From contig JBNJHN010000003.1 of assembly GCA_051748565.1 (NCBI GenBank), positions 9,596-73,595 on the forward strand: DNA of 64,000 bases. The letters run 5' to 3'. A program made the translations under genes and the position numbers. Below are positions 6,340-63,518 of the stretch, one piece after another. The stretch's first letter is position 1, and every line of letters begins with the position of its first letter. Source of the DNA: Bacillota bacterium (GTDB lineage: Bacteria; Bacillota; Dethiobacteria; DTU022). The notes below the pieces were generated by a model. The model searched no databases, had not been told where the DNA came from, and saw only the letters and a program-made list of their open reading frames with translations.

Positions 6340-6362
6340 TAGCATCGGTTTGATAACTGCAA

Positions 6363-6410
6363 AAGGGTCCGGCCGATAGCGGAATTCCGCTTCGGTTTGG
6401 CCCTTTTTTA
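6363..6410 (+). terminator. Rho-independent terminator candidate after the beta-oxidation operon
   Basis: Extended imperfect GC-rich hairpin (gggtccggccgatagcggaa / ttccgcttcggtttggccc) followed by TTTTTT. Confidence 0.45.
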
Positions 6411-6476: not shown

Positions 6477-6590
6477 TTGAAGGTGGATTCATTCTAAAGG
6501 ACTAATCCATAATTTACTCTTTTTTCACCTTGCTTCCATGCTTTTTAGCGATTCTATTATTATAAATATCCTGTAAACTGGTAAAGTAGA
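6477..6590 (+). repeat. Divergent copy (C) of the conserved ~100-nt intergenic element, 64 bp upstream of bamB
   Basis: gaaggtgg ... tttactcttttttcaccttgcttccatgctttttagcgattctattatt ... gtaaagta aligns to the copies at 28917 and 45853. A ~26-nt insertion follows the first block. Confidence 0.4.
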
Positions 6591-6653: not shown

Positions 6654-8633
6654 ATGAGATATGCTGAAACAGGGTATAATTTGGAAATTAACTTATCGAC
6701 TGGAAACATTGAGAAGGTGGAAACCGATCCGGAATTAACAAAAATGCATCTGGGCGGCCTGGGAACCAATGCCAGGTTGTTATGGGATCGGGTCCCCCCC
6801 GAAGCTGAACCTTTTTCTCCGGATAATCTTTTAATTTTTGGGACAGGCCTCTTGTGCGGCACCCCTGCTATAGGAGCCAACCGGACTATAATTAGCACTT
6901 ACTCTCCTCAGACTTTATTTATGGCTTTTTCCATGATGGGAGGATTCTTTGCCCCGGAATTAAAATATGCCGGCTATGATAAAGTAATCTTTAGCGGTAA
7001 GTCGCCGAATCTTGTTTACATATGGATTAATAATGACAAAGTAGAAATACGTGATGCTTCTCATTTGCAGGGCAAAGGGGCGGTTCAAACCGAAAAGCTT
7101 ATTCGAGAGGAGCTGCAGGAACCCAATGCCCAGGTAGCCGCTATCGGCCTGGCCGGTGAAAACAGGGTCTATATGGCCTCCATTGAGCACGGACGATCCA
7201 GCGCCAGCAGACTGGGTCTGGGTGCCGTGATGGGTGACAAGGGGATAAAAGCAATAGCTGTACGTGGAACTAACGATGTCAATGTAGCCCGACCGGTTGA
7301 TTTAATTAATTTTTGTACAGATATTCTGAATTATATTCCGGAAAGAGATGGCAATCCGATTCCCGGAGTGATGCCTATCTTAGCCGGGCTTGGTTCGCCG
7401 AAAGAGATGTTAATTCATGATGAAAAGTGGCATACTGAGAATTTCATGTGGGGTAATGCCAGAACACGGATAAAAGATTACTGGACCAAGGATATTGAAG
7501 ATAAGTGGAAAGAATCGCAGGAGAGTGCGCGAAAGCGTCTGATAAGCTGTTATAACTGCCCGATGGAATGCGGAGCCATAATTTCTATTCCCGGTATATC
7601 AACTTACATGATGAAATGTTTCTCGAAGCTCACCTACACCATGGCAGCATACTCAGACCTTGATTTCGGTTTTAGAATAGCGCAGCGTGCCACAGAATAC
7701 GGTGTCGATGGATTTTCTATGCCACAGGTTATGGCCTTTGCCCTCGAGCTTTATGAGGCCGGCATCCTTACAGATGATGACTTTCCGGGTATGCCTTCCG
7801 ATAATGAGGAAAGATTTTTCTGGTTGCTGGACAGGATTGTCCGGCGGGAAGGGATTGGTGATATTCTGGCCGATGGTGTTTACTGGGCAGCCCGCCGGAT
7901 TGGTAAGGGAGCGGAGGAATATGATCATAATACTATTAAAAAGCATGAGCAGTTACCGCTCAAGCTATCAATGCTGAATCCGATTTATTTCCTGATGTGG
8001 GCCACCGGCGAAAAGATTAATATTACCCAGATTGAAGGGAATTTCCCCCAGGCACCTTTTCCCACCCGTGAGGAGCGGGAAGAGTTTGTTAAGGATTGGG
8101 TTCATGTTCCTGATGAGAAGTTCAAGAAATACTTTTTAGATTGGGAACTGCGCGGGGAAAATTCATTTCCTTATTACCCTCCCGTTGATGCTACCTGTGA
8201 AATTGTTGATTGGCAGGAGACCATGCATTATATTGATGATTCCCTCGGATTATGTGCCGGTTTATCATCGTTTCCCCTAAAGCCTCCCTATCATATCCAT
8301 AACCTGCCGATCCTGATTTCGAAAGCAGCCGGAATTGATATGGATAAAGATAAACTGTGGGAAATTGCCAAGAGGAATCGGACTTTATTGAGAGCGATTA
8401 ATGTAAGAAGAGGTTTAAGAAGGGAAGATGACCGTCCTCCTGAGAATCATTGGAAGAAGAGATTCCCCGAACTCGAAGTTCAGCTCTTGGATCAATATTA
8501 CAAACTTAAAGGTTTCAATAACGATGGTGTTCCAACCAGGGAATCCTTACTTGAATTGGGTATGGATTACGTTGGCGAAGACCTGGAGAAGAGAGGGATT
8601 TATGACAATGGCGAAAGTAAAAAAGAAAGTTAA
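6654..8633 (+). CDS. bamB: Tungsten-containing aldehyde:ferredoxin oxidoreductase-family protein; BamB-like active-site subunit of class II benzoyl-CoA reductase
   Basis: 659 aa, AOR N-terminal and catalytic domains. It is the first gene of an AOR / ferredoxin / HdrD / HdrA / MvhD / NuoE / NuoF / NuoG-like cluster. Confidence 0.85.
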   Translation: MRYAETGYNLEINLSTGNIEKVETDPELTKMHLGGLGTNARLLWDRVPPEAEPFSPDNLLIFGTGLLCGTPAIGANRTIISTYSPQTLFMAFSMMGGFFAPELKYAGYDKVIFSGKSPNLVYIWINNDKVEIRDASHLQGKGAVQTEKLIREELQEPNAQVAAIGLAGENRVYMASIEHGRSSASRLGLGAVMGDKGIKAIAVRGTNDVNVARPVDLINFCTDILNYIPERDGNPIPGVMPILAGLGSPKEMLIHDEKWHTENFMWGNARTRIKDYWTKDIEDKWKESQESARKRLISCYNCPMECGAIISIPGISTYMMKCFSKLTYTMAAYSDLDFGFRIAQRATEYGVDGFSMPQVMAFALELYEAGILTDDDFPGMPSDNEERFFWLLDRIVRREGIGDILADGVYWAARRIGKGAEEYDHNTIKKHEQLPLKLSMLNPIYFLMWATGEKINITQIEGNFPQAPFPTREEREEFVKDWVHVPDEKFKKYFLDWELRGENSFPYYPPVDATCEIVDWQETMHYIDDSLGLCAGLSSFPLKPPYHIHNLPILISKAAGIDMDKDKLWEIAKRNRTLLRAINVRRGLRREDDRPPENHWKKRFPELEVQLLDQYYKLKGFNNDGVPTRESLLELGMDYVGEDLEKRGIYDNGESKKES

Positions 8634-9179: not shown

Positions 9180-10331
9180 GTGGATACTGAAGCCCCGATT
9201 AAAGAGGTTATAGAGGAGATAAAAGAATTTGGTGGCGACGCTGTAAAATTTTGTTATCAATGTGGAAAATGCGATACAGTATGTCCCTGGAATAAAGTTA
9301 CAAAATTTAGCATACGCAAGTTGATACGTGAGGCTACTTTTGGCATACCGGAAGTAGAGCTTGAAGAAGTCTGGCGCTGTACTACCTGTGGTAAATGCCC
9401 CCAGGAATGTCCCAGGGACGTAAAGCAAGTAGATGATGTTGTGGCCATGCGCAGGATAGCCGCGGAATATGGTGTATCTTCAACCCTGCTGAAACCTGTT
9501 CGTTCAGCAAGCGCAAGCCTTGCCGCTGAAGGTAATCCCGTTGTCCAGGATCGATCCAGGAGGACTGAATGGGCAGAAGGTCTGAATATAAAACCATTCA
9601 CAGAAGAAATGGAAATTCTTTATTTCTCCTGCTGCTATGTCTGTTATGATCAGAGATTGAAGGAAATTGGTCAGGCCACGGTCAGGCTTCTTAATAAAGC
9701 TGAAGTCGATTTCGGCACACTGGGCACCCTGGAGAACTGTTGTGGAGAAAGTATCCGTAAAACAGGCAATGAAGAAATTTTTAAAAGTCTGGCCAGAGAA
9801 AATATTAAAACCTTTATAGAACACGGGGTCAAGAAAATTCTCGTTTCTTCTCCACATTGCTACCATACTTTTAAGAACGAATATCCTGAATTCAAAGCGA
9901 ATTTTGAAGTGGTTCACATTACCCAGTATTTGCACGATCTAGTTAACGAGGGAAGACTTCAGATCAATAAGGAGTATGAAAAGAAAGTAACCTATCATGA
10001 TCCCTGTTATCTGGGCCGGCATAACGGTATTTATGACATTCCGCGGGAAATTTTAAAAAAGATACCCGGCCTGGAACTAAACGAGATGGCCGAATCGCGT
10101 GAAGACAGTTTATGCTGCGGGATGGGTGGAGGCAGGATTTGGATCGATACCAAGATGCCTGAGAGATTCTCCAATATCAGGATTCAAGATGCAATCAATC
10201 TTGGAGCCGAAGTCCTTGTCACCTCTTGCCCTTATTGTGTTGATGCTCTCGAGGAAAGCAGATCGGGGTTAAACCTGGAAAGTGCTATAGAGATAAAAGA
10301 TATCACGGAAATACTCCAGGAAGTGATCTGA
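9180..10331 (+). CDS. bamD: HdrD-like heterodisulfide-reductase-type protein with a ferredoxin domain and two CCG Cys-rich domains, BamD-like
   Basis: CYQCGKCDTVCP and CTTCGKCPQECP motifs are followed by CCG-type motifs (CCGESI, CCGMGGG). The GTG start lies 11 nt after AAAGGTGGGG. Confidence 0.75.
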   Translation: MDTEAPIKEVIEEIKEFGGDAVKFCYQCGKCDTVCPWNKVTKFSIRKLIREATFGIPEVELEEVWRCTTCGKCPQECPRDVKQVDDVVAMRRIAAEYGVSSTLLKPVRSASASLAAEGNPVVQDRSRRTEWAEGLNIKPFTEEMEILYFSCCYVCYDQRLKEIGQATVRLLNKAEVDFGTLGTLENCCGESIRKTGNEEIFKSLARENIKTFIEHGVKKILVSSPHCYHTFKNEYPEFKANFEVVHITQYLHDLVNEGRLQINKEYEKKVTYHDPCYLGRHNGIYDIPREILKKIPGLELNEMAESREDSLCCGMGGGRIWIDTKMPERFSNIRIQDAINLGAEVLVTSCPYCVDALEESRSGLNLESAIEIKDITEILQEVI

Positions 10332-10400
10332 GGTGCGAAAGATTAAATGTACTGCAATAGAATAGCGGGTTTGATATAAAACCTGATGAGGTGATAGAAA

Positions 10401-13400
10401 GTGGAAAATAAATTGGAAATAAATAGCGGGCAACTTGTCAGAAACCTTGCAGGCAGTAATTTTGGAGATGTAATGGTTGTAGGTGGAGGGGTCAGCGGCA
10501 TCCAGTCATCCTTAGATCTTGCTGCTGCCGGTTTTAAGGTTTATCTTGTTGACAGCGCCCCTGCTATTGGCGGCCATATGGCCCAGCTGGATAAGACCTT
10601 TCCGACCAATGATTGCTCTATGTGAATACTCTCACCCAAACTGGTCGAGGTCGACCGGAATACCAATATTGAGGTCCTTTCCTATACTGAAGTGGATAGT
10701 GTGGAAGGCGAAGCGGGGAACTTTAAAGTAACCCTGAGGAAAAAACCCAGGTATGTATTAGAAGACAAGTGCACCGGCTGCACTGTCTGCGTTGAGTATT
10801 GTCCTGTAAAGTACCCTGATAAATTTAATCAGGATATATCGAAGAATAAAGCGATTCATATATACTATTCTCAGGCAATCCCCCTGATCACCTATATAGA
10901 TGAAAGCTGCATTTACCTGAAAGAGAAAAAGTGTCGCATCTGTGAGGCAGTATGTAAAAACGAGGCAATAGATTTTAATCAGACCGAAGAGAAGGTGGAA
11001 ATAAAAGTCGGGGCTGTAGTTCTGGCTCCGGGTTATGAACCATTTGATCCGGGCATAAGAGAGGACTATGGCTACGGTAAGTTCGAGAATGTGATAACCA
11101 GCATGGATTATGAACGGTTGACGGATTCCACGGGTCCTTATGAAGGCCAGGTCCTGCGCCCTTCCGATATGAAGCATCCCCATAAAGTAGCCTGGATCCA
11201 GTGTGTCGGTTCCAGGCAGGTTAACCCACCGGGCGCGAAAAGCTATTGTTCCTCGGTCTGCTGCACCTATACGCAGAAACAGGTAATATTAACAAAAGAA
11301 CATGACCCTGAATCTGAATGTGTCGTATTCCATAATGACATTCGATCCTACGGCAAAGATTTCGAGCGATTTTATAAAAGGGCAGAGGATCTGCCCGGGG
11401 TTCAATTTATCAGAAGCTATCCGTCGGTGGTAAAGGAAGATCCGGAAACCAGGAGTGTTACGATAAAATATGCAACCAATGATGACGGTGTGAAGGAAGA
11501 AGAATTTGACATGGTTGTATTATCGGTCGGGTTAAATCCACCCGCTGATTTTGAGAAACTGGCTGATAAGTTTGGTATTGAATTAAATGATCATGGCTTC
11601 TGCAAAACTAATCCTGTAAATACAATGCAGACTTCCCGCCCGGGATTATTTATCAGCGGCGCTTTCCAGGGTCCGTTAGATATCCCCGAATCTGTTGTAA
11701 CTGCGAGCGGCGCAGGGTCTCAGTGTGGCGAGCTTCTTAATTACAGGAGAGGGGATCTCTCCAAAGAAAGGGTATATCCTCCGGAAAGGGATGTTTCTTC
11801 AGAAGAACCCAGAATCGGCGTTTTTGTATGTCACTGTGGAGCGAATATCGGCAGGGTGGTTGATGTTCCTTCCAATGTTGAATATTCCTTAACCCTGCCC
11901 AACGTTGTCTATGCCCAGGAACAGCTTTTTTCATGTGCAACTAATTGTGCCGAAGAAATTACTGAGAAGATAAAAGAGAAAGAGCTAAACCGCGTAATCG
12001 TTGCCGCCTGTTCTCCGAGGACACTTGAAATGTTATTCCGGGATACACTTCGGGAGGCGGGGCTGAATCAATACTACTATGAAATGGCCAATATCAGGGA
12101 ACATTGCTCCTGGGTTCACCCCAAAGAAAAAGATAAAGCTACTCAAAAATCCAAGGATATTATTCGAATGGCAGTAGCCCGTGCCCGCCACCTGGAGCCG
12201 TTAATGGAGATAGATCTGCCGGTTGATAAAAGGGCTCTGGTGGTTGGTGGAGGAATTGCCGGCATGACCTGTGCACTCTCTATTGCCGCTCAGGGGCATG
12301 AAGTGCACCTGGTGGAAAAGGATAAAAACCTGGGAGGAACAGCAAGGAAAATATATGATACCCTGGAAGGGCTTGATGTTCAGACCTATTTACGCGACAT
12401 GATCGGCAAAGTTTATCAAAACCCCCTGATCCATGTTTATACCGATGCTGCAATCAAACAGAACACAGGGTATATTGGAAATTTTATTACCAGGGTGGAG
12501 ATTGATGGAAGAATAGCAGAAATTAAGCATGGAGCAACTGTGATTGCCACGGGTGCTGATGTTTATACACCCAGCGAATACCTTTATGGTAAAGATGACA
12601 GGGTTCTGACCCATCTCGAGTTGGAAGAAAAGATTGTTGAAGAAGATGAAAAAGTTATTAATGCTGAAAACCTGGTTATGATTCAGTGCGTGGGTTGCAG
12701 AAATGAAGACAGGGATTATTGTAGTCGAATCTGCTGTAACGAATCCGTAAAAAACGCCCTGAAGCTAAAAGAGAAAAACCCGCAGATGGATATCTATATT
12801 CTCTTCAGGGACATGAGAACCTATGGTTATAATGAAGATTTTTACAGGGCTGCGGCGGATAAAGATATCAAATTTATTCGTTACGAACCTGAAGAAGAAC
12901 CACAGATTGAAGCTGCTGAGGGAGAAAACGGGCCTGTTTTAAGGGTTACCCTGCCCGATTATGTTTTAGAGAAAAAACTTGAAATAGATGCTGATATTAT
13001 TGCACTGGCTGCTGCTGTTATTCCTTCTGCAGGGGCTAAAGAAATAGAAAGCTTATTCAAGGTTGGCTTGAACCAGGATGGTTTCTTTAAAGAGGCCCAT
13101 GTTAAATTAAGGCCGGTTGAATTTGCTGCAGACGGTGTTTATCTTTGTGGCTTGGCACACTATCCAAAGCTGATTTCAGAGACGGTCAGCCAGGCTTATG
13201 GTGCCGCGGGCCGGGTTTTAACCCTTCTTTCAAAAGATATCGTGACCGCTTCCGGCTCTATATGTGAGGTTGAAGAAGAAAAGTGTGTTTCCTGTGGAGC
13301 ATGTATTGCAGCCTGTACCTACGGTGCCATAGAATTCCGGGAAACAGAAATGGGTATTAAAGCTTTTGTCAATCCTGTTCTTTGTAAAGGTGACGGAGTC

Positions 13401-13526
13401 TGCAATGCAGTTTGCCCGACAGGGGCCATACAACTTAAGCACTTTACCGACAAAGAACTCTTGAGTCAAATCGATGCTGCAATACCGGAAGAAGAAGTCA
13501 TAAAGAAAATTGAAGCGCTGGTTTAG
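10401..13526 (+). CDS. bamE: HdrA-like FAD/FeS flavoprotein, BamE-like, with in-frame UGA (selenocysteine) at 10623-10625
   Basis: The track ORFs 10401-10625 and 10692-13526 are in the same frame and separated only by TGA. The reading is ...[23 protein letters not shown]..., which puts the UGA at the conserved HdrA Cys. Also present are an N-terminal FAD motif [10 protein letters not shown], a second GGGIAG motif, and several CxxCxxCxxxCP ferredoxin motifs. Confidence 0.8.
10641..10658 (+). other. Candidate bacterial SECIS hairpin 15 nt downstream of the bamE UGA
   Basis: ctGGTCGaggtCGACCgg forms a 5-7 bp stem with a small G-containing loop at the spacing expected for SelB-dependent recoding. 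Confidence 0.4.
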
Positions 13527-13671
13527 AACTTTTGGCAATACAAAATGTTTAGTTACTCAATTTAATATAAATCAAAATAAAATTTCTATTTCACCATAGC
13601 AAGGGAAATGAGTCTTTGGAAGTTTTTAAAAAATATATTTAAACGTATTAGAAACACAGGAGGTGTGGCGA

Positions 13672-14439
13672 ATGAGTACAGAAATGACTTTTAAACCAAG
13701 CATTATTGGTTTTGTATGTCAGTGGTGAGGATATGGAGCTGCGGATCTGGCTGGAGTTTCCAGACTACAATATACAACTGAAATCAGGCTTATTCGCGTT
13801 ATGTGCACCGGTAGAATCGACCTCGCACATATAATTAGGGCTTTCTCAAATGGGATAGATGGTGTTTTTATTGGTGGTTGTCGTTTAAATGAATGTAATT
13901 ATATTACTCACGGAAATTTTCATGCACTAAATATTGTGCTTCTTTGTAAGAAAATGATGGAATACATCGGTCTGAATCCCGAACGTTTGAGGATTGAGTT
14001 TATGTCATCCGGGGAGGGGAATCTTTTTGCCGAAGTTGTCGATGATTTTGTAGAGACAGTCAGGGAGACAGGCCCTCTTGGAAAAAGTGAGGGAATTGAT
14101 GAAACTGGATTAAAAGTAAATCTTAAAGCTATAACCAGCTTAATCCCCTATATCAGGCTGGTGGAAAGTGAAAGGCTAAGAGGGCACTTTGGAACATTAG
14201 CAGAGTTCAGGGACTTTTATTCCAGCGAAGAATTTGAAAGGCTCTTCCAGGAGCTGATCGCAGATAAACTGGCAATCAGCCAAATTATGATGCTCCTGCG
14301 GGAAAAACCCCTGTCTACGGGAGAAATCTCTGAGATACTGGGTCTTTCCCCGTCTGAAATATCAAAACACCTGAATAGTTCAGCAAAGCTTGGCCTGGTC
14401 AGGTATGAGGAAAATGAGAAGCGCTTTGCTTCTGTCTGA
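13672..14439 (+). CDS. bamF: MvhD/FlpD-like (methyl-viologen-reducing hydrogenase delta subunit family) protein, BamF-like, with in-frame UGA (selenocysteine) at 13726-13728
   Basis: The ATG at 13672 follows AGGAGGTG. Translation [53 protein letters not shown] places the UGA at the second Cys of the conserved CxWC..GADLAG MvhD motif. It is in frame with the track ORF 13801-14439. Confidence 0.75.
13746..13764 (+). other. Candidate SECIS hairpin about 18 nt downstream of the bamF UGA
   Basis: tCTGGAgttTCCAGa forms a 5-bp stem with a 3-nt loop. An alternative pairing is tctgg/ccaga with a 9-nt loop. Confidence 0.35.
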
Positions 14440-14487
14440 TACTAATCAGCAATCAGCATGGTGAAGGGGGATCGCGGGGCAGAGGCC

Positions 14488-14940
14488 ATGGATAATACCA
14501 GAATTGATCAAATCGTTGAAAAATATGACTGTGAAGCCAGTTCGCTCATCCAGGTATTATTGGAAATTCAGAGTGAAAACCGCTGGCTTCCAAAGCAGGT
14601 ATTGGAGAGGATTAGCGAAAGGCTAGAGGTGCCTTTGGCCAGAATACAGCACATTGCTACTTTTTATAAGGCATTTAGTTTAGTTCCGAAGGGCCGTCAT
14701 GAAATACATATTTGCATGGGTACCGCCTGTCATGTCCGTGGTGCGCAACTTGTCCTCGACAAAGTTCAAGACCTGACCGGTATTAACCCTGGCGAAACAG
14801 ACCTGGATCTCAAATTCAGCCTGGAGACGGTTAACTGTCTTGGTTGTTGTGCTTTAGGCCCGGTGATGGAAATTAATGGGCAAATTCACGGGAAGATATC
14901 ACCGGCCGAGACAGCAGATGCCCTAAAAAAATACGACTGA
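14488..14940 (+). CDS. bamG: NuoE-like 2Fe-2S thioredoxin-fold ferredoxin, BamG-like
   Basis: Cys pattern CMGTACHVRG ... CLGCCALGP is typical of NuoE/HoxE. The ATG at 14488 follows GGGGCAGAGG. The upstream in-frame ATG at 14458 has no RBS. Confidence 0.75.
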   Translation: MDNTRIDQIVEKYDCEASSLIQVLLEIQSENRWLPKQVLERISERLEVPLARIQHIATFYKAFSLVPKGRHEIHICMGTACHVRGAQLVLDKVQDLTGINPGETDLDLKFSLETVNCLGCCALGPVMEINGQIHGKISPAETADALKKYD

Positions 14941-14962
14941 GGGAAGATTGTGAGGGAAGATT

Positions 14963-16885
14963 ATGCCACGGATAAACTCACCTGCTGAACTGGAAGCAAT
15001 CAGAAAGGAATTACTGTCTCAACGAGATCCCGACAAACGGACTATTACGCTTTGCTCCGGTTCTGCCTGCCACGCAACGGGCAGCAGGTTGGTAGCTGAG
15101 AGTATCGAAGAAGAGATAAAAAAACAGGGTTTAACTGATCAAGTCGATATAAGGAAGACTGGTTGCCATGGTTTTTGTGAGAGAGGTCCGATCATAGTTA
15201 TCCACCCCGATGAAATATGCTACTTACAGATTAAGCCCGATGATGTTCCTGAAATTATTTCTGAGACGATCAAAGAAAATAGGATCATAGAGCGTTTACT
15301 TTATAAAGATCCCGCTACAGAGGAAGAGATAATTCATGAACATGAAATTCCCTTCTACAAGAACCAGAAAAGGCTTCTTTTCGGGGCCAATATTACAATA
15401 GATCCCAAAAGTATTGAAGACTACCTGGCTATTGGCGGTTATTCTGCGCTGGTTAAAGTTCTTTTTGAAATGAATCCTGAACAGGTTTTGGAAGAAATTA
15501 AAAAATCTAACCTGAGGGGCAGAGGTGGCGGCGGCTTTCCGGCAGGGATAAAATGGGAAGGCTCCCGTAATGCACCGGATGATAAGAAATATGTAATAGT
15601 AAATGCGGACGAAGGTGACCCCGGAGCCTACATGGATAGAAGTTTACTCGAAGGCAATCCTCATTCAGTTCTTGAGGGGCTGGCGATTGGAGCTTATACC
15701 ATTGGCGCAGAGGAGGGTTATATTTACGTTCGGCAGGAATACCCGCTGGCAGTAGAAAATATTGGTATTGCGATCAGCCAGGCTGAGGAATATGGATTCC
15801 TGGGGGATAATATTCTCGGCTCAGGCTTTAATTTCAAAGTTATTGTGCACCAGGGGGCAGGCGCGTTTGTCTGCGGCGAGTCTAGCGCTTTAATGACGGC
15901 TTTGGAAGGCAGGGCAGGTGAACCAAGGCCGAAGTATATCCGTTCAAACATCAAGGGCCTATGGGAAAAACCTACTGTTTTGAATAATGTTGAAACCTGG
16001 GCCAATGTTCCATTAATTATCAATAACGGTGCCGATTGGTTTACACAATATGGAACGGAAAAAAGCAAGGGTACAAAGATTTTTTCATTGGTAGGCAAAA
16101 TAAACAATACCGGTCTTGTAGAAGTAGCGATGGGTATGACCCTGCGAGATATTATTTTCAAAATAGGTGGCGGAATCCCCGGAGACAAGAAGTTTAAAGC
16201 AGTACAGACTGGCGGGCCGTCCGGCGGCTGCCTGCCAGCAGATTTATTAGATTTGGAAGTAGGTTTTGATGAGCTTACCCAGGCCGGCTCGATGATGGGT
16301 TCCGGGGGTATGATTGTCATGGATGAAGATACCTGCATGGTTGATGTGGCCAGGTATTTCCTTGATTTTCTCGCTGATGAATCGTGCGGTAAATGTGTCC
16401 CCTGCCGCGAAGGTGTCAAACAGATGCTGAACATTTTGACTAATATTACCCGGGGTAAGGGTAAGGAGGGTGATATTGAGCTTTTGGAGGAGCTGGCGGA
16501 GGTGGCCAGAGAGGGAGCACTCTGTGCTTTGGGTCAGACTGCGCCAAATCCGTTTATAAGTACATTAAAGTATTTTAAAGATGAGTATGAAGCACATATC
16601 AATGAAAAGAAGTGCCCGGCACTATATTGCAAAGAGCTTATTGACTACTATATTGATCCGGAAAAATGCCGGGCCTGTATGATTTGTCTCAAACAGTGTC
16701 CCGCAGATGCAATTATAGGGGAAAAGAAAAAGATCCATATAATAGACCAGGAGAAATGCACGAAGTGCAATACTTGTTTTGAGGTTTGTCCACCCCGTTT
16801 TAATGCGGTGAAGAAAATATCCGGTGAACCTGTCCCGCCTCCAATTTCCGAAGAAGAAAGAGTTATCACCAGGGGGAATAATTAA
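14963..16885 (+). CDS. bamH: NuoF-like NAD(P)H-binding FMN/4Fe-4S flavoprotein with extra N-terminal thioredoxin-like and C-terminal 2x[4Fe-4S] domains, BamH-like
   Basis: 640 aa. Contains the GRGGGGFPAGIKW FMN/NADH motif, the SLBB domain, CGKCVPCREG, and the C-terminal CRACMICLKQCP and CTKCNTCFEVCP motifs. Confidence 0.85.
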   Translation: MPRINSPAELEAIRKELLSQRDPDKRTITLCSGSACHATGSRLVAESIEEEIKKQGLTDQVDIRKTGCHGFCERGPIIVIHPDEICYLQIKPDDVPEIISETIKENRIIERLLYKDPATEEEIIHEHEIPFYKNQKRLLFGANITIDPKSIEDYLAIGGYSALVKVLFEMNPEQVLEEIKKSNLRGRGGGGFPAGIKWEGSRNAPDDKKYVIVNADEGDPGAYMDRSLLEGNPHSVLEGLAIGAYTIGAEEGYIYVRQEYPLAVENIGIAISQAEEYGFLGDNILGSGFNFKVIVHQGAGAFVCGESSALMTALEGRAGEPRPKYIRSNIKGLWEKPTVLNNVETWANVPLIINNGADWFTQYGTEKSKGTKIFSLVGKINNTGLVEVAMGMTLRDIIFKIGGGIPGDKKFKAVQTGGPSGGCLPADLLDLEVGFDELTQAGSMMGSGGMIVMDEDTCMVDVARYFLDFLADESCGKCVPCREGVKQMLNILTNITRGKGKEGDIELLEELAEVAREGALCALGQTAPNPFISTLKYFKDEYEAHINEKKCPALYCKELIDYYIDPEKCRACMICLKQCPADAIIGEKKKIHIIDQEKCTKCNTCFEVCPPRFNAVKKISGEPVPPPISEEERVITRGNN

Positions 16886-26382: not shown

Positions 26383-27099
26383 CTAATGGCCAATTTTGTC
26401 GTTGTCGGCATTTTCAATTATAAATAAGCTATCTGCCCTGTTCCGGCTAAGTTTCATAGCCAGGGATATAGCCTGGGTTCTGTTTTTCACCTGTAGTTTC
26501 TGATAAATGTTGCGCAGGTGGGTCTTTACCGTGTCGACTGCCAGATTTGTGGCTGAGGAGATTTCTTTATTTGTTAAACCCTTAACCAGCTGCCTGAGGA
26601 TTTCCTGCTCTCTTGGTGTGAGTTCTACCCGCTTTTCTTCTTTTTCCAGAGGCTTTATTTCGGTAAGTTTTTTACTCAGGCGGGTATAATCGTTTACTAT
26701 CTGGCGAAAAACAGATTGATCGATAATGGTTTCTCCATTATGAACTCTTTTAATTGTATCGATCAGGTTTTGTCTGCTAACATGTTTGAGAATATAGCCG
26801 GATGCCCCGCTTTGAAGGGCCAGACGGATTGATTCCGTATCTTCAAAGATAGTTAAAAAAATTATTTTTATCTCCGGTTTTTGGGCCAGGATTTGCTTCG
26901 CTGTTTCTATACCGTTTACGCCTTCCATTTTAATATCCATGAGAATGACATCGGGTGCAACCTCATGCGCTTTAGCTATAGCTTCTTCACTGTTTCCGCA
27001 GCTGCCGGCGATGGAGATACCTTCACAGTTTTCAAGCATATTCGACAATCCTTCCCGGACCATGGGGTGATCATCAACAATGAGGATTTTAATAGTCAA
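26383..27099 (-). CDS. LuxR/NarL-family response regulator (REC + HTH)
   Basis: ILIVDDHPMVREGL ... the conserved D in DIKMEG ... and a C-terminal LTPREQEILRQLVKGLTNKEIS LuxR HTH. The TTG start at 27099 lies 8 nt after GGAAGGAG. The track ORF extends to 27195 with no RBS. Confidence 0.75.
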   Translation of the reverse strand: MTIKILIVDDHPMVREGLSNMLENCEGISIAGSCGNSEEAIAKAHEVAPDVILMDIKMEGVNGIETAKQILAQKPEIKIIFLTIFEDTESIRLALQSGASGYILKHVSRQNLIDTIKRVHNGETIIDQSVFRQIVNDYTRLSKKLTEIKPLEKEEKRVELTPREQEILRQLVKGLTNKEISSATNLAVDTVKTHLRNIYQKLQVKNRTQAISLAMKLSRNRADSLFIIENADNDKIGH

Positions 27100-27134
27100 T
27101 TCAAGAACTCCTTCCCGAGCTTCCCGAGTGAAAC

Positions 27135-28865
27135 TTAAATAGGAATACTTACATTTATCTTTGTTCCCTTGCCGGGGCCGCTGTGGATGTTGCAAACTCC
27201 TCCCAGCATGAGGGCTCTTTCCTGTATGCTGGCCAGACCCAGGCGATTCTGTAGTTGCGGTGTTTCGGCAAATACTGTATTGATTCCGGTACCATTGTCC
27301 TCAATTGACAGATTTACTTCTGCATCTTCTATATCCAGCCGGACCTTTACTTTTGTAGCATCGGCATGCTTGATTACATTGGTCAGCGCTTCCTGTAATA
27401 TCCTGAATAATGTAACTTCAATATTTGAAGCCAGCCGCTGTTTTTCACCTTTAACTTCCAGTTCTATAGGAAGATCGTTCTTTTCAGAAATATTATAAAC
27501 ATGGGCTTCAACAGCAGGAATTAAGCCATAATTATCAAGAATAATCGGGCGAAGATCGTAAAGTATTCTTCTCACTTCTTGGATCTGTTCACTGAGGACA
27601 TTTGTAACATCGGTGATCTCACTATGCCATTTCTGTGATTCCACCGCTTCAGTGGATGCGATTCTCTGCAGTCGGTACCAAATGGCTATAAGAGATTGTA
27701 TAATACCGTCATGCAGATCGGCAGCCAGACGCTTGCGTTCGTCTTCCTGAGCAGTTGTCAGCTTATTTACCAGCTGGTGTAAAAGCTGTTCTTTTTGACC
27801 CAGGGTTTCAATTAGCCCGGCATTTTCCATTGCTACCGCAGCAGCCCGGGCGATTGCGAATATGATTTCGATCTCATCACTTTCAAAACCACCCGATTCC
27901 AGCAGGCGATCTGTCTGCATAATACCAATAGTTTTCCCTTTGCTTAAAATCGGAACCAGCAGGACCCAGCTGTAAGCGAAATCATCGATAATTTCCCGGG
28001 GTAGCTGCCTGGTTATATTTTGTGGGGTAATGATCACCGGCTGTTCTGTTTTAATTGCCCGCTTAATGCCCGGGAACAGCTTTGCGCCTTTCAATGCTTT
28101 AAACTTTTTTTTCAAGTCAGGATCGTAGCTCCCCACTGCGACAGCAGGAATAAGGGTCTGGTCTTCTTCGTTTAGCAGGTATATGCAGCTCCTTGCCGAA
28201 AACAGGTCTGCTGTTAACTGGGTAACAATATGCAGCACCTGCCTTATATCCAGTGTGGAGCTGATCGTGTTTACCAGCTCCAGCCAGACGGCAAGCTTTC
28301 TCAGATGGCGATCTTTTTGTCTCCGGAAAAGTGATTCCTGGATTATATCGGCCATATGCCTGCCCAGGGAAACGGCTTTTGCCAGCATATATTGTCCGCT
28401 CTGGTAGTCAGTATTGAATATACCGATTTCCATTGTTCCAACAGGATCGCCGGCTTTTAAAAGAACCGGTAAGGTGGTTGATATCACCGGAGAAAGTGAC
28501 TCCAGCAATTTTTTATTTTGCCTGTTCTCTGCAATTGATAAGTAATCACTTAATTGGGAACAGCGATTTTCATAAGCTTCAACTTCAGAAGCTGTTCTCT
28601 CCCCATCCCTGGAAGCGTGCCAGCAGACCAGGTCTTTGCCGTCCCGAACCAGCATCAGGCTGGCCTGACAGAAATCAAAATAATCAACAGAGGTTTGCAG
28701 GATATTCTGAAGAGAAGTTCTTACTTCCTTTACAGCATTAAAGTTGGGGCTGACACGACAAATTAGGATTAACTCCGGTTTTAACTTCGGGGCAGATAAA
28801 TGGTCCGGCAATTGTTTACCACCTTTTCCAGCAGTTTGCAGTTCCTCGGGAATCTGTTTGTTCAA
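27135..28865 (-). CDS. Sensor histidine kinase with tandem GAF domains, HisKA_3 (H-box LHDGIIQSL) and HATPase_c; cytoplasmic
   Basis: 576 aa with no TM segments. Of the NarX/DegS-type kinase families that pair with LuxR regulators. Confidence 0.8.
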   Translation of the reverse strand: MNKQIPEELQTAGKGGKQLPDHLSAPKLKPELILICRVSPNFNAVKEVRTSLQNILQTSVDYFDFCQASLMLVRDGKDLVCWHASRDGERTASEVEAYENRCSQLSDYLSIAENRQNKKLLESLSPVISTTLPVLLKAGDPVGTMEIGIFNTDYQSGQYMLAKAVSLGRHMADIIQESLFRRQKDRHLRKLAVWLELVNTISSTLDIRQVLHIVTQLTADLFSARSCIYLLNEEDQTLIPAVAVGSYDPDLKKKFKALKGAKLFPGIKRAIKTEQPVIITPQNITRQLPREIIDDFAYSWVLLVPILSKGKTIGIMQTDRLLESGGFESDEIEIIFAIARAAAVAMENAGLIETLGQKEQLLHQLVNKLTTAQEDERKRLAADLHDGIIQSLIAIWYRLQRIASTEAVESQKWHSEITDVTNVLSEQIQEVRRILYDLRPIILDNYGLIPAVEAHVYNISEKNDLPIELEVKGEKQRLASNIEVTLFRILQEALTNVIKHADATKVKVRLDIEDAEVNLSIEDNGTGINTVFAETPQLQNRLGLASIQERALMLGGVCNIHSGPGKGTKINVSIPI

Positions 28866-28916
28866 TTTTATCTTTTACCTGTGATAACGTCAACACAGGC
28901 GTTTCAAAGTATTCAT

Positions 28917-29013
28917 CCGAAGGTGTTAGCTCTGATTTCACTCTTTTTAACCTTCATTCCATGCTTTTAAGGGATTTTTTTATTGACACTCTTTGATTAA
29001 GCTTAAAGTAAGG
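28917..29013 (+). repeat. Copy A of the conserved ~100-nt intergenic element (candidate shared promoter/operator), between the divergent TCS and methyltransferase operons
   Basis: ccgaaggtgttagctctgatttcactctttttaaccttcattccatgcttttaagggatttttttattgacactctttgattaagcttaaagtaagg is roughly 80-85 % identical to 45853-45950. Contains TTGACA. Confidence 0.5.
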
Positions 29014-44547: not shown

Positions 44548-45852
44548 ATGAATATAATGGCTTTTTTTGAGCAAAAATGGGAAACCATGCCTCAGGATGA
44601 ATTGCAGGAAATACAGTTGGATAAGTTTAAAAAGCAAGCCCGGCTTGTTTATGGAAACCAGTTTATTAAAGAACGCTTTGATCAAGCCGGGTTACATCCC
44701 GGCGAAGTCAAGGATTGGGAGGATATCAGGAAGGTGCCTTTTATGACCAAGGACGACCTGCGTGAGAATTATCCTACCGGTCTTGTTTCCGGGGACTGGA
44801 ACGATGTTTACCGTGTGCATATGACCTCTGGAACTACAGGGGTGCCAACCCCAATGGTTTATAGCAAGAATGATCTCCATGTCTGGGCCAGGTGCATGGC
44901 ACGAAACTTTGTTGGGGGTGGATTGCGCAAAGAAGATGTTGTCCAACAGGCACACGGGCTGGGGCTTTTCACCGGTGGATTTGGTTTTCATTACGGGCTT
45001 GAACTGGTCGGAGCTAAAGTTATCCCTACCGGAGCAGGTGGTACCGAGAGACAGCTGCGGTTAATGCAGGAATGGGGGACAACTGTATTTACCGGAACTC
45101 CTTCTTATGCAGCTTATATGGCCGAATTTGCCTTGGAACACGGGATCGATCCGGTGAAAGATTTGAAACTACGGCTCGGTTTTCATGGTGGAGAACCTTG
45201 TTCTGACGAGCTTATGGATAGAATTAATTCTCGTCTCGGCTACAAAGCTCATGGTGGAGGAATGAGGCGCTGCTATGGATTGACCGAAATGGGTGGGCCG
45301 ATTGCCATGGATTGTGAAAACGGAAGCGGAATACATATCTGGGCCGATCATTACCTGGCGGAAGTGCTTGATCCGGAAACACATGAAAATGTGGAAAAGG
45401 GGCGGCCGGGAGAACTGGTTATCAGCAATCTTAGTTTCGAGGTGATGCCCTTACTGCGTTACCGTACCGGCGATAATGTCGTGATCAGCACCGATACCTG
45501 TGAATGCGGCCGAACCCATCCGCGAATTGTTCAATTTGTCGGGCGGTTGGATGACATGATTTTAGTCAGCGGAACAAATGTATATCCAAGTCAGGTTGAA
45601 CATATTTTATTGAATCATAGCGAACTTAGTGAAAACTGGCAGCTTGTAGTGGGCGATAAAAAGGGGTTACACACACTGAAAATTGAAATTGAACCTGTAG
45701 CCGGAGTTCATATCGATGAGCAATTCTTAGCATCAGTGGAAAAAGAGCTTCACCAGTGCCTTGCCATAAAGTGCCCGATTGTGATTCAACCCCTGGGCAG
45801 CCTGCCCAGGTTTGAAGGAAAAGCAGTTCGGGTTATAGATCAGCGTACTTAA
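44548..45852 (+). CDS. Phenylacetate-CoA ligase (PaaK)/F390-synthetase-family adenylate-forming enzyme
   Basis: 434 aa. The N-terminus KWETMPQDELQEIQLDKF, the TSGTTG motif and the PaaK C-terminal domain are present. Confidence 0.8.
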   Translation: MNIMAFFEQKWETMPQDELQEIQLDKFKKQARLVYGNQFIKERFDQAGLHPGEVKDWEDIRKVPFMTKDDLRENYPTGLVSGDWNDVYRVHMTSGTTGVPTPMVYSKNDLHVWARCMARNFVGGGLRKEDVVQQAHGLGLFTGGFGFHYGLELVGAKVIPTGAGGTERQLRLMQEWGTTVFTGTPSYAAYMAEFALEHGIDPVKDLKLRLGFHGGEPCSDELMDRINSRLGYKAHGGGMRRCYGLTEMGGPIAMDCENGSGIHIWADHYLAEVLDPETHENVEKGRPGELVISNLSFEVMPLLRYRTGDNVVISTDTCECGRTHPRIVQFVGRLDDMILVSGTNVYPSQVEHILLNHSELSENWQLVVGDKKGLHTLKIEIEPVAGVHIDEQFLASVEKELHQCLAIKCPIVIQPLGSLPRFEGKAVRVIDQRT

Positions 45853-45950
45853 CCGAAGGTGTTAGCCCTGTTTTCACTCTTTTTTAATCTCGAATCCATG
45901 CTTTTAAGGGATATTTTTATTGGTTTGCATTGGGTAAGCTTAAAGTAAAT
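45853..45950 (+). repeat. Copy B of the conserved ~100-nt intergenic element, starting at the paaK-like stop codon and 145 bp upstream of the DUF35-oah operon
   Basis: ccgaaggtgttagccctgttttcactcttttttaatctcgaatccatgcttttaagggatatttttattggtttgcattgggtaagcttaaagtaaatg aligns base by base with 28917-29013. Confidence 0.5.
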
Positions 45951-60247: not shown

Positions 60248-60387
60248 AAAATCAGCAGGGGAAAATAATAAATAGAATTGTGTGGGGACCAAATCGAAAG
60301 TTTCTAGAATTATTTCAATTAATTTTCCGGTTAAGAAGGATTTTTGCAGGTTTTGGCGAAGGAAAGTAAACATATATTGCGTATGAA

Positions 60388-60615
60388 CCCTGTGGGAGAG
60401 TTCCGTTCAGCGGACACCGAAGGAGCAACCTTCCGACCTGGCGGGCGGTGGGGAAACTCTCAGGTTTCAGTACCATCGGGGGATGCACCTCTGGAGAGCG
60501 CCCGTTAATACGGGGCACCGACGGGGAAAGCCTCTTAATTTATATAAGGGAGCAATCTCTCAGGTATCAGGGACAGAGTAAAAAGCCGCAGGGCTTTCTC
60601 TGTCCTTTTTGTTTT
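60388..60615 (+). promoter_or_regulatory. Tandem glycine riboswitch (two aptamers plus terminator expression platform) in the gcvT leader
   Basis: Aptamer 1 is GGGAGAG...CACCGAAGGAGCAA...CTCTCAGG. Aptamer 2 is CTGGAGAG...CACCGACGGGGAAA...CTCTCAGG...GGACAGAG. The terminator stem GGACAGAG/CTCTGTCC is followed by TTTTTGTTTT. Confidence 0.8.
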
Positions 60616-60663
60616 CTTGTTTCCAGCAGTGAAATTTATAAAGAAAGGAGGATGGTAGTACTG

Positions 60664-61767
60664 ATGAGTGAAGGAAATAAAACACCATTCTACGAAAAAC
60701 ACCTCGCACTGGAAGGGAAAATAGTCGACTACAGTGGTTGGCTTCTGCCGGTTCAATATCCGAAAGGATTGGTTGAAGAAGTTCACGACACCCGCCAGAG
60801 AGCAACTATTTTCGATGTTTCACACATGGGCGAAGTCAGTGTCAAAGGTAAAGATGCCGAAGTATATTTACAGAAGATCTTGGTTAATGATATTTCAACT
60901 CTTAAAAACAATGCTATTATGTACAGCCCGGTTTGTTATCCTGACGGTGGAGTTGTCGATGATATCCTGGTCTACCGCATTGAAGAAGAAGATTTTTTCC
61001 TGGTAGTAAATGCTGCAAATACAGACAAAGACTATGCCTGGTTCAAAGAAAATATGTCTGGCGATGTCGAACTAAATAACCTTTCTTCAGATTATGCCCA
61101 GATTGCCCTGCAGGGGCCCAACAGCGAGGCAATCTTGCAGCAGCTAACTGATGCATCTTTAGCTGAAATGAAGAATTATCATTTCCTGCCGGATTTACAA
61201 GTAGCCGGAGTAAACTGCATTGTATCCAGAACCGGCTATACCGGGGAAGATGGTTTCGAAGTTTACTGTAAAAATGATGGAGCTGATGTCCTTTGGGATG
61301 CCATTTGGACGGCTGGTGTGAAGCATGAGCTTAACCCTGCAGGGCTTGGAGCCAGGGATGTCCTGCGTCTGGAGGCAGCGATGCCTCTCTACGGCCATGA
61401 ATTGAGCAAAGAACTTACCCCCCTGCAGGCCGGCCTGGATCGTTTTGTAGCCCTCGAAAAGAAAATTGCTTTTAACGGACAGGAAGCTTTAAAAAAGCAG
61501 CAGTCGGAAGGAATGAGCAGAAAACTTTTCGGCCTGGAAATGCTGGAGCGGGGTGTGCCTCGTGAAGGTTATCCGGTTAAAGCCGGAGATCAGGAAATTG
61601 GCTGGGTCAGCAGTGGATCTTATTCCCCAACGCTGGACAAGTTTATCGCCATGGCTTTTTTAGATCCGGAAGTTGTTAAGCAAACCAGTGAAGTTGATTT
61701 AATGATCCGCAATCGCTCTTACCGGGCGCGGATTACCAAAATGCCATTTTACAGGAGGAAAAAATAA
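60664..61767 (+). CDS. gcvT: Glycine cleavage system aminomethyltransferase (T protein)
   Basis: The ATG at 60664 follows AAAGGAGGA. GcvT domains are present, and the gene lies downstream of the glycine riboswitch. The track ORF start at 60448 is rejected. Confidence 0.9.
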   Translation: MSEGNKTPFYEKHLALEGKIVDYSGWLLPVQYPKGLVEEVHDTRQRATIFDVSHMGEVSVKGKDAEVYLQKILVNDISTLKNNAIMYSPVCYPDGGVVDDILVYRIEEEDFFLVVNAANTDKDYAWFKENMSGDVELNNLSSDYAQIALQGPNSEAILQQLTDASLAEMKNYHFLPDLQVAGVNCIVSRTGYTGEDGFEVYCKNDGADVLWDAIWTAGVKHELNPAGLGARDVLRLEAAMPLYGHELSKELTPLQAGLDRFVALEKKIAFNGQEALKKQQSEGMSRKLFGLEMLERGVPREGYPVKAGDQEIGWVSSGSYSPTLDKFIAMAFLDPEVVKQTSEVDLMIRNRSYRARITKMPFYRRKK

Positions 61768-62165
61768 TGAAATATAATATTATTGATGGTGTAAGATACA
61801 CCAGGAAGCATGAATGGGCCCGTCAAGAAGACAATACTGTCGTCGTCGGTCTTTCAGACTTTGCTCAGGACAAGCTTGGTGAAATAGTTTTTGTCGAGCT
61901 GCCGGATATTGGCACAGAAGTCGAAGCGGGTAAAGGGTCTGCAGTAATCGAGTCGGTTAAAGCCGTAGCTGACCTATATGCCCCTGTAGACGGAACCGTG
62001 GTTGAGATTAATGAAGATCTGCTTGATCAACCTGAAGCAATCAACTCAGACCCTTACGGAGCCGGTTGGGTATATAAAGTTGAAATCAAGGATGAAGCCC
62101 AATTTGATGCATTGATGGATAAGCCGACTTATGAAAAATTTGTTATAGAGGAGGATGAGAAATAG
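61767..62165 (+). CDS. gcvH: Glycine cleavage system H protein
   Basis: Lipoyl-lysine motif ESVKAVADLYAP. Confidence 0.9.
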   Translation: MKYNIIDGVRYTRKHEWARQEDNTVVVGLSDFAQDKLGEIVFVELPDIGTEVEAGKGSAVIESVKAVADLYAPVDGTVVEINEDLLDQPEAINSDPYGAGWVYKVEIKDEAQFDALMDKPTYEKFVIEEDEK

Positions 62166-62168
62166 CAT

Positions 62169-63518
62169 ATGGGTGGTAAACATTACCTTCCCCTGACTGA
62201 TGAAGATCGGCGTGAAATGCTTGCTGTAATCGGTGTTAATGCCGTTGAAGATCTTTTTAATGATATCCCGGCAGAAGTACGCCTGAAACGGGAACTGGAT
62301 CTGCCGCCGGCACTGGCGGAATCGGAGGTGATAAGCTATCTGAATTCGCTGGCATCAAAAAACAGGCATTTCCATAATTCTGTTTCATTCCTGGGTGCAG
62401 GGGTTTATGATCATTTTATTCCTTCCATTATTAAACATGTCACCGGTCGCAGTGAGTTCTATACATCTTATACTCCCTATCAGCCTGAAATAAGCCAGGG
62501 AGTCCTGCAGGCAATTTTTGAGTTCCAGACGATGATCTGCCAGCTAACCGGAATGGAAGTATCGAACGCTTCTATGTACGATGGCGGCACTGCTGTTGCC
62601 GAAGGAGCAATTATGGGCTGTGGGGCAACAAGAAGATCCAAAACTCTTGTTTCTCGTTCGGTCAGTCCTTTTTATCGCGAGGTGCTCAGTAATTATTATA
62701 ACAGCCGTGGCCTTGACCTGGAAGAGATCCCTCTAAAAGACGGCCGCACCGACTTGTCCGAGCTGGACAAGATGCTTGGTGACGATATTGCTTCGGTAGT
62801 CCTGCAGCAGCCCAACTTCTTCGGTATGATTGAAGAAATGGATGGCCTGGCTGAAATGGTTCACAATCATAAAGCAGTTTTTGTTGTCTCCGCCGATCCC
62901 TTATCGCTGCCCCTGCTGCAGAGTCCGGCCGAGTACGGTGCTGATATCGTAGTTGGTGAAGGGCAGGGCCTGGGTGTCCCTGCATCATTTGGCGGACCAT
63001 TGCTGGGCATTATGGCAGCGCGCGGTAAATTTGTTCGCCAGATGCCCGGTCGTATTGCCGGAGAAACTGTTGACAGCGAAGGGAATCGCGGTTATGTTTT
63101 GACCCTTCAAACCAGGGAACAGCATATCAGACGTGAAAAAGCGGCTTCCAATATCTGCTCCAATGAAGCCCTTGTGGCACTTGGGGCAGCTGTTTATCTT
63201 GCTGCGCTTGGCCCGCAGGGAATGCGTGAAGTTGCCCGGCAGTGCCTTCAGAAAGCTGCCTATGCCCGTGAAAAGATAACGGCTCTCAAAGGTTTTGAGA
63301 ATTTATTCGAAGGGCATTATTTTAAAGAGTTTGCAATAAAAGTGCCCGGCGATCCCGCAGAACTCAATAAAAGGCTGTTGGATAAAAATATTCTCGGTGG
63401 CGTCGATCTGGCTCCCTTTTATCCAGAGCTAAAAAATACCATGTTATTTGCTGTCACAGAAAAGAGGACCCGCCAGGAGATCGATGCCCTGATCCGGGAA
63501 TTGGAGGGATGGAAATGA
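62169..63518 (+). CDS. gcvPA: Glycine dehydrogenase (decarboxylating) subunit 1
   Basis: 449 aa, GcvP N-terminal half. Confidence 0.9.

Follow-up and report, generated by a model that had tools for sequence, protein, structure and literature searches.

A likely activator-dependent promoter cassette shared by three aromatic-CoA operons of a Bacillota bacterium

Results

In a 64,000-nucleotide stretch of DNA from a Bacillota bacterium (contig JBNJHN010000003.1 of assembly GCA_051748565.1, positions 9,596 to 73,595; hereafter the window), an intergenic element of ~105 bp occurs in three same-strand copies, each upstream of a catabolic operon linked to the benzoyl-CoA pathway. We consider it likely that each copy is an activator-dependent promoter cassette of the sigma-A type, belonging to an aromatic-CoA regulon and carrying phased regulator sites, so that three operons would share one form of control; the two-component system encoded next to one of the copies probably drives the cassette. 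Computational comparison established the conservation of the element, its synteny in relatives, its −10 signature, the periodicity of its upstream part and the absence of RNA structure.

Three copies of one element

Alignment of the regions revealed a single element at 28904-29009 (copy A), 45840-45946 (copy B) and ~6484-6587 (copy C), all on the + strand. Copy A (nhmmer E=4e-18) lies between a divergent kinase/regulator operon and a methyltransferase (MTase)-SDR-thiolase operon, copy B begins in the last codons of a gene for a PaaK-like ligase and precedes DUF35-oah-dch-had, and copy C lies upstream of bamB. The original prediction had described three copies in the same orientation, two of them roughly 80-85% identical and a third more divergent, and this description stands: all three are present at the sites given and on the same strand, a gapless repeat finder aligned A and B at 81% identity across 68 nt and at 84% across another 45 nt, and copy C reaches 63% identity to copy A in a gapless comparison. 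The likeness between A and B starts within the ligase gene, ~13 nt before its 3′ end. The downstream ATGs lie 64, 108 and 145 nt away, in agreement with the 64-145 bp originally given, and the 51 nt stated between copy A and the kinase open reading frame (ORF) is correct. The spacing from ccatgctttt to TAAAGTA, said to be fixed at 47-48 nt, did not hold, as we counted 45-46 nt from start to start and found that it varies among relatives.

The most constant part of the alignment is an 18-nt core, TCCATGCTTTTAAGGGAT, whose form across the family is TCCATGCTTTTWAGSGAT. With up to three mismatches allowed, this core matches the window exactly three times, against 0.15 matches expected, and three matches were reached in 0 of 100 shuffles. 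It occupies 28958-28975 (+) in copy A, where it is predicted to span −52 to −35, 45895-45912 (+) in copy B, and 6535-6552 (+) in copy C as TCCATGCTTTTTAGCGAT. An nhmmer profile built from 39 related copies recovered these three copies and no others from the window's 64 kb; the model-based scan of the whole genome and of related genomes that had originally been proposed was thus carried out for the window, whereas other genomes were scanned by exact pattern.

The operon contexts claimed for the copies (bamB-I, DUF35-oah-dch-had, MTase-SDR-thiolase-amidohydrolase and the divergent kinase/LuxR pair) were matched by Pfam and NCBIfam domains. By these assignments, bamB (AFOR) starts at 6654 downstream of copy C. 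Copy A is followed by genes for the MTase, SDR, thiolase and amidohydrolase, a 2-hydroxyacid dehydrogenase, two HGD-D proteins, a 2-oxoacid:ferredoxin oxidoreductase, a ligase and an MFS transporter. Copy B is flanked by the PaaK-like ligase upstream and by DUF35, oah, a dch-like gene and had downstream, with both oah (TIGR03200) and had (TIGR03201) exceeding the NCBIfam cut-offs.

A promoter-like signature downstream of the core

We derived the anatomy of the cassette from a 21-sequence alignment with position counts. A TAnnnT hexamer lies 21-22 nt past the core in every true unique copy, and this rule holds in 16/16 unique copies from a metagenome scan whose search pattern constrained nothing downstream of the core. 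The first, second and sixth positions of the hexamer (T, A and T) are invariant and the third to fifth vary (TAAAGT, TAAGCT, TAAACT, TAAGAT, TAAAAT, TAGAGT, TATGGT), while the 16-17 nt before it are unconserved and spacer-like. Judged by its letters, this conservation pattern is that of a sigma-70-family −10 element, with T-12, A-11 and T-7 at a fixed position. No TTGACA-like −35 element was found 16-18 nt above it; a T-run (TTTTTT-like) occupies that position, and a consensus scan detected no canonical + strand promoter within the cassette. The lack of a −35 element fits an activator-dependent promoter and not a self-sufficient one.

The predicted −10 element of copy A is TAAGCT at 28998-29003 (+), 22 nt past the core, with a second hexamer, TAAAGT, at 29004-29009. 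Copy B has TAAGCT at 45935-45940 (+) and TAAAGT at 45941-45946, and copy C has TAAACT at 6574-6579 (+), 21 nt past the core, and TAAAGT at 6582-6587. TAAAGT is therefore the second hexamer in A, B and C, 6-8 nt past the first, and is itself the 21-22-nt hexamer in most relatives; across relatives it is found 21-22, 28-29 or 31-33 nt from the core end. TAAAGTA as a fixed element was rejected, since it lies between 21 and 33 nt from the core, depending on the relative.

Several other promoter or operator assignments were also discarded. For a canonical sigma-70 promoter, the TTGACA of copy A is wrongly spaced, with 9 nt separating it from TAAGCT and 15 nt from TAAAGT, and it is not conserved. 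Inspection of both strands showed no sigma-54 GG-N10-GC (TGGCAC-N5-TTGCW) in any copy, the nearest likeness being TGGAAG-N5-TTAAA on the − strand, which lacks the GC. Likenesses of the core to a MotA box, an IHF site, a CcpA-cre or a LysR T-N11-A motif fit neither by sequence nor by position.

An array of tandem units upstream of the core

A palindromic box, box1, forms the distal end of the array and provides a candidate primary site. Its consensus is AAGGGTTAACCCTT, and it is a perfect palindrome in the related loci L004, L034 and L054. In copy A it reads AAGGTGTTAGCTCT (28920-28933, no strand assigned), with its centre at about −82.5 from the predicted + strand promoter and about −70 from the predicted divergent promoter; in copy B it reads AAGGTGTTAGCCCT (45856-45869, no strand). 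The box1 of copy C, AAGGACTAATCCAT (6497-6510, no strand), is an imperfect palindrome, and the orthologous locus L004 has the perfect form AAGGATTAATCCTT.

From the centre of box1 to the core, the DNA is made up of two tandem units ~21 bp apart, u1 (TTAaCCCTnATTTcActCTT) and u2 (TTaACCTtGcTTCCATGCTT), given as TTAACCCTnATTTCACTCTT and TTAACCTTGcTTCCATGCTT in our proposed anatomy, and u2 is followed by a partial third unit, TTaAGnGATTTT. In copy A the tandem units cover 28926-28966 (+), with u1 TTAGCTCTGATTTCACTCTT at 28926-28945 and u2 TTAACCTTCATTCCATGCTT at 28947-28966. The two units share on average 11.9 of 20 positions (maximum 16/20), compared with 5.3 ± 2.0 for control 20-mers, of which 0.03% reach 12. 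A lag of 21 gave the strongest self-similarity (z=3.1), and the periodicity of the units is 20-22 bp. If the hexamer is assumed to lie at −12 to −7, the TTAA centres fall at −82.5/−83.5, −61.5 and −41.5.

An alternative description of the array, in which TTCAYNCT is repeated three times at 21 nt, was dropped in favour of the u1/u2 unit, as its first interval is 25 nt. The box1 palindrome and T-run were also considered as an intrinsic terminator and rejected, because the stem is too weak and the A and B types do not conserve it. Some copies of these two types have box1 doubled in tandem, for example as TTAGGGGTTAGCCCTTAGGGGTTAGCCCC, with the two copies ~14-15 nt apart (L023 1121-1190, L028 6088-6157 and L030 1180-1249), a spacing that is not a helical repeat.

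Conservation and distribution in relatives

To begin with loci chosen by protein similarity alone (BamB 85-97% identical), a choice that carries no sequence-pattern bias, every one of these bamB loci has the cassette upstream of bamB with the core exact. The intergenic DNA around the cassette is unalignable among them, and the cassette stands 64 to ~400 nt from the bamB ATG; across the copies as a whole, 57 to ~400 nt of unconserved sequence separate it from the start codon. Two outgroup bam loci (L075 and L076; BamB 79-81% identical), one of which belongs to a 6.2-Mb genome, lack the cassette at a best E=0.4 with nhmmer --max.

A scan for the exact pattern in one genome per species, covering 185,579 species, returned 29 loci. 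Fifteen of them have all other cassette blocks, and all 15 come from a Firmicute clade; the other 14 are chance matches in unrelated phyla without any other cassette block. L034, one of the 15, is labelled Desulfovibrionaceae, which may be a binning or labelling error. The metagenome scan gave 35 loci, 31 of them true. The cassette is found at ~46 places in related metagenome-assembled genomes (MAGs) and metagenome contigs, in DNA of Syntrophomonadaceae/Dethiobacter type; the related records are Syntrophomonadaceae, Dethiobacter or Bacillota MAGs, many of them from soda-lake sediments, and spore-germination genes are present in the related loci. The BamB protein of the window has a 100%-identical counterpart in a MAG labelled Bacillota bacterium, although an exact-protein look-up gave no record. 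The host is accordingly a Firmicute of Syntrophomonadaceae/Dethiobacter-like affinity, and no deltaproteobacterium.

When the neighbouring ORFs were compared with the proteins of the window by BLAST, nearly all true copies fell into the same three contexts, namely bamB, the kinase/regulator pair beside (MTase)-SDR-thiolase, and the PaaK-like ligase beside DUF35-oah-dch-had. This does not hold for L040 and L055, whose cassettes stand ahead of genes for BadF/BadG/BcrA/BcrD-family ATPases (− strand ORFs, L040 1131-1907 and 227-1102, L055 123-896), and possibly not for L052, where the downstream DNA ends. By their family, these ATPases could be subunits of a class I aryl-CoA reductase or dehydratase activators, and their position suggests that the putative regulon reaches beyond the three contexts of the window.

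One 98-kb metagenome contig carries three copies, as the window does; we never saw more than three per ~100-kb contig, and representative genomes have one or two exact core-pattern matches each. The paralogous types hold their own diagnostic substitutions across species, with AAGGGAT in the A and B types versus TAGCGAT in the bamB type. As these type-specific substitutions are kept while the flanks are saturated, the copies appear to be ancient, individually maintained and under purifying selection, and the low copy number, fixed contexts and kept types together give the distribution of a small regulon and not that of a repeat. A second conserved block, AAGCGGCAGGTGATG-like, lies ~25-35 nt downstream of the −10 hexamer in several relatives, namely the bamB-type loci L009 (~9850-9875), L018, L034 and L037 and the ligase-context locus L024; copy C of the window is without it.

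A two-component system beside copy A

The candidate cognate regulators are encoded at 26383-28865 (−) and consist of a GAF-HisKA_3-HATPase kinase (27135-28865) and a REC-GerE response regulator of the NarL/LuxR type (26383-27099), whose closest solved relatives are VraR, NarL and DevR. Both in the window and in every relative with a visible flank, the pair lies divergently to the A-type copy. A predicted sigma-70-like promoter of the kinase/regulator operon lies at 28865-28893 (−), with TTGACG and TAAAAT separated by 17 nt. CGTCAA, which is the TTGACG −35 hexamer read on the other strand, is conserved ~20 nt upstream of the cassette in the A-type copies of relatives, and taking it as the divergent −35 element places box1 at about −70 of the kinase/regulator promoter.

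The TTG start listed for the kinase ORF (28865) overlaps the predicted −10 hexamer TAAAAT (28870-28865) of its own promoter. Orthologues are 557-571 amino acids (aa) long, compared with 576 aa here, and a few mechanical ORF calls reach 634 aa. Together, the shorter orthologues and the overlap suggest that the real start codon of the kinase may be a few codons downstream.

Proposed mechanism

We propose that one mode of control would govern bamB-I, the (MTase)-SDR-thiolase-amidohydrolase genes with those that follow them, and DUF35-oah-dch-had. The layout would comprise a TAnnnT −10 element, a variable spacer of 16-17 nt, a T-run at −35 and the core TCCATGCTTTTWAGSGAT at about −52 to −35, preceded by two units and a partial third whose TTAA centres would lie on one face of the helix, the distal unit being extended to the full palindrome AAGGGTTAACCCTT. 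A signal linked to aromatic-CoA metabolism would activate the GAF-HisKA_3 kinase, which would phosphorylate the NarL/LuxR-type regulator; the regulator would bind the palindrome and spread cooperatively onto the phased proximal sites, and from the site at −41.5 it would recruit RNA polymerase to a promoter without a −35 element of its own. At copy A, it is tempting to speculate that the palindrome, ~70 bp upstream of the divergent kinase/regulator promoter, would also mediate autoregulation. Three parts of this scheme are inferred: where transcription starts, that the effect is activating and not repressive, and which protein binds. The original prediction of a promoter-plus-operator module of a benzoyl-CoA regulon is supported by the synteny in relatives, the low copy number, the absence from the outgroups and the −10-like hexamer, and for copy A also by a palindrome that lies between divergent promoters beside a two-component system.

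A number of points weigh against this proposal. The per-genome copy number rests on exact-pattern matches and ~0.5 Mb of fetched loci, and in the sets collected by pattern the core is bound to be invariant, since the pattern itself demands it, so that only the protein-anchored loci, several of which are close relatives, test the core in an unbiased way. The numbering of the sites at −41.5, −61.5 and −82.5 assumes a start 7 nt past the hexamer, and two candidate −10 hexamers lie side by side in each of copies A, B and C, which leaves the precise start ambiguous. Moreover, the core is not an evident dyad, and the proximal units are more conserved than the palindrome, whereas the secondary boxes of DevR, the mycobacterial regulator discussed below, are degenerate; this order of conservation means that a second protein, or RNA polymerase itself, may read the core.

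Alternative explanations

The same cassette might have its core and proximal units read by a factor other than the adjacent NarL-type regulator, such as a BamF-like FlpD-ArsR-type helix-turn-helix (HTH) protein, a repressor or an alternative sigma factor using the core as its −35 element, in which case box1 alone would serve the two-component regulator. We regard this as unlikely, although the core and u2 are more conserved than the palindrome and have no dyad symmetry, and no acceptable −35 element is present. In addition, an FlpD-HTH_5 fusion is found in all cassette-bearing bam loci examined, whereas the two outgroups without the cassette have FlpD-Fer4, a correlation that involves two outgroups only. 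Against this alternative, the core is no inverted repeat, the usual form of an ArsR-type site, and the TAnnnT −10 element is of the housekeeping-sigma type. Finally, u1, which contains half of box1, and u2, which contains half of the core, are plainly one unit repeated, arguing for one protein family along the whole array.

The fusion protein is encoded in the bam operon at 13801-14439 (+), where an FlpD/MvhD-domain, BamF-like protein is joined to a winged HTH of the ArsR/SmtB type (HTH_5, E=1.6e-10). The fusion also occurs in L001-L010, and the proteins of L075 and L076 have FlpD-ferredoxin domains. From its domains, it is possibly a redox-sensing DNA-binding subunit. The more specific idea that the near-invariant ~45-bp proximal block (u2, the third unit and the core) is the docking site of a dedicated, lineage-specific factor such as this protein seems to us quite improbable. 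If it were true, the FlpD-HTH protein could make transcription of the entire pathway depend directly on the redox or assembly state of the class II benzoyl-CoA reductase, and the cassette would integrate a substrate signal, through the two-component system and box1, with a redox signal at the core.

We consider it very improbable that the conserved DNA acts as RNA, either as a cis-acting, riboswitch-like leader on the + strand or as a small RNA on the − strand, a leader being an option that the original prediction had kept open. The conservation is long and contiguous (~45 nt), it is located upstream of operons, and copy B directly follows a gene with no terminator between, so that it is probably transcribed by read-through. 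Against an RNA, RNAalifold on 21 diverse copies predicted no pairing at all for the + strand and, for the − strand, one hairpin of 3 bp (−0.45 kcal/mol). When A, B and C were folded singly on either strand, none of the six folds was better than those of shuffles (z from +0.06 to +1.38). At the gathering threshold, Rfam matched only glycine riboswitches at 60383-60578 in the window, and in a permissive scan the best sub-threshold match of each copy was to a different, unrelated family. Furthermore, the conserved blocks lie upstream of the conserved −10 hexamer and the leaders vary in length and sequence, and the palindromic TTAA centre of box1 suits a site for a protein dimer, not a hairpin loop. 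Taken together, these results disfavour the RNA reading and go most of the way to refuting it.

A generic dispersed repeat without a regulatory role, such as a repetitive extragenic palindromic sequence, a miniature inverted-repeat transposable element or the remnant of a recent duplication, could account for three copies in 64 kb and for an A-B likeness that runs a few bases into a coding region. On the strength of the distribution, we take this reading to be refuted: 64-98 kb contain three copies whose contexts and orientation do not change, the outgroups contain none, and the types keep their substitutions across species where flanking DNA is saturated. The original view that the element is not mobile agrees with the small number of copies, their constant context and orientation, and the lack of terminal inverted repeats, target duplications and a transposase.

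That the ATG of the core starts a tiny conserved peptide (MLLRDFF..., MLFSD...) has a negligible chance of being right, since, although every copy retains an open frame of 11-16 codons and the ATG is conserved, a pyrimidine run stands upstream in place of a Shine-Dalgarno sequence, the peptides diverge in length and sequence right after the core, and the ATG lies upstream of the predicted −10 element; small ORFs on both strands were rejected for their variable stops and missing Shine-Dalgarno sequences.

Neighbouring features of the window

An intrinsic terminator at 6361-6409 (+), with −29.6 kcal/mol, z=−4.85 and a following U-run, closes a thiolase-HCDH-ACAD-ECH operon ahead of copy C, suggesting that copy C opens a new transcription unit. 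This terminator escaped a simple terminator scan owing to its long composite stem. Further along the operon that follows copy A, the segment 33067-40454 (+) encodes a D-2-hydroxyacid dehydrogenase, two HGD-D (2-hydroxyacyl-CoA dehydratase) subunits, subunits of a 2-oxoacid:ferredoxin oxidoreductase and an acyl-CoA ligase. From its gene content, this segment looks like a branch of the arylpyruvate/aryllactate type that would be co-regulated with ring reduction.

In Geobacter, Bam subunits are selenoproteins. In the window, the HdrA-like BamE gene is seemingly split into ORFs of ~74 and ~940 aa, and the FlpD gene is seemingly truncated at its N terminus (~10331-10692 and 13526-13801, +; in L001, 13748-13972 / 14354-16870), a pattern that would fit in-frame UGA selenocysteine codons. 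The tandem glycine riboswitch at 60383-60578 (+) has aptamers scoring 66.4 and 42.2 bits at a gathering score of 32, and the gene run downstream of it (60448-63518) presumably encodes glycine cleavage. The GTG start listed at 60448 lies inside the riboswitch, and thus the true start must be further downstream.

Discussion

We know of no work on how the class II (Bam) benzoyl-CoA reductase pathway is regulated in Gram-positive or uncultured syntrophic anaerobes, and we found no description of the cassette motif in the searchable literature. For anaerobes that are Gram-positive and largely uncultured, the cassette would be the first cis-acting element through which to approach the regulation of Bam-type benzoyl-CoA metabolism. 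As a regulon marker, it would tie together the bam genes, oah/dch/had, the SDR-thiolase-dehydratase-oxidoreductase operon and, in some relatives, the BcrA/D-type ATPases, and it points to a candidate sensor/regulator pair for a switch that responds to aromatic-CoA compounds. Being compact, the promoter could also be used to mark or report aromatic degradation in soda-lake and digester metagenomes.

Comparison with known systems

By analogy with DevR and StyR promoters, the cassette would work as a promoter under a NarL-family two-component system and would be conventional in kind. The systems that regulate the same benzoyl-CoA route are BamVW-PbamY of Geobacter metallireducens, BzdR, BadR/BadM and BgeR. 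BamW is a sigma-54-dependent activator, and BzdR, BadR/BadM and BgeR are repressors of other families. The cassette contains no sigma-54 GG-N10-GC, and it is absent from the bam loci of non-Firmicute type that were tested.

A NarL/FixJ-type two-component system that activates an aromatic operon through multiple upstream sites is known in Pseudomonas from StyS/StyR at PstyA and TodS/TodT at PtodX, to which the proposed arrangement is similar. PtodX has several TodT boxes and no −35 element, and the boxes of StyR and TodT are of the ATAAACC type, unrelated to those of the cassette. At PstyA, StyR-P binds with high affinity ~40 bp before the start, and the promoter also has an upstream element (PMC2442086). 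These pathways are aerobic and proteobacterial and involve PAS-type sensors and bending by IHF, whereas here a single cassette is found at three operons.

NreBC of staphylococci resembles the present system in having a NarL-type regulator in a Firmicute and a palindrome upstream of its targets. The NreC motif, TAGGG-N4-CCCTA, is near to box1, (A)AGGG-TTAA-CCCT(T); a literature search for the exact motif gave only a general statement of a GC-rich palindrome. That statement concerns NreC as a NarL-type Firmicute regulator binding such a palindrome upstream of its target operons (PMC8139620). In contrast to the system proposed here, the kinase of NreBC is of the PAS/Fe-S type, its targets serve nitrate respiration, and no invariant proximal core is known there.

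DevR/DosR of Mycobacterium tuberculosis, with its kinases DevS/DosT, differs from the present system in phylum (Actinomycetota versus Bacillota) and in function (hypoxic dormancy versus aromatic catabolism), and the binding of the regulator is a prediction in our case. The Dev box is an 18-20-bp sequence of the GGGACTTTAGTCCC type, unlike box1 of the cassette, which is GGG-N4-CCC centred on TTAA. The two systems have in common a kinase with GAF and HisKA_3 domains and a REC-GerE regulator. DevR promoters have a conserved primary palindrome next to boxes at −63.5 and −42.5 that are in helical phase and are occupied cooperatively, and the DevR footprints extend over ~80 bp in divergent intergenic regions (PMC3177182). 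In a cryo-electron microscopy complex, DosR makes contact with sigma region 4 and with the alpha subunit (PMC13486717). The sites predicted here would follow the same plan, with a palindromic box and then phased boxes ~21 bp apart from centre to centre, the proximal one near −42, in an array of ~80 bp common to divergent promoters, and with a weak core promoter that is predicted to need its activator.

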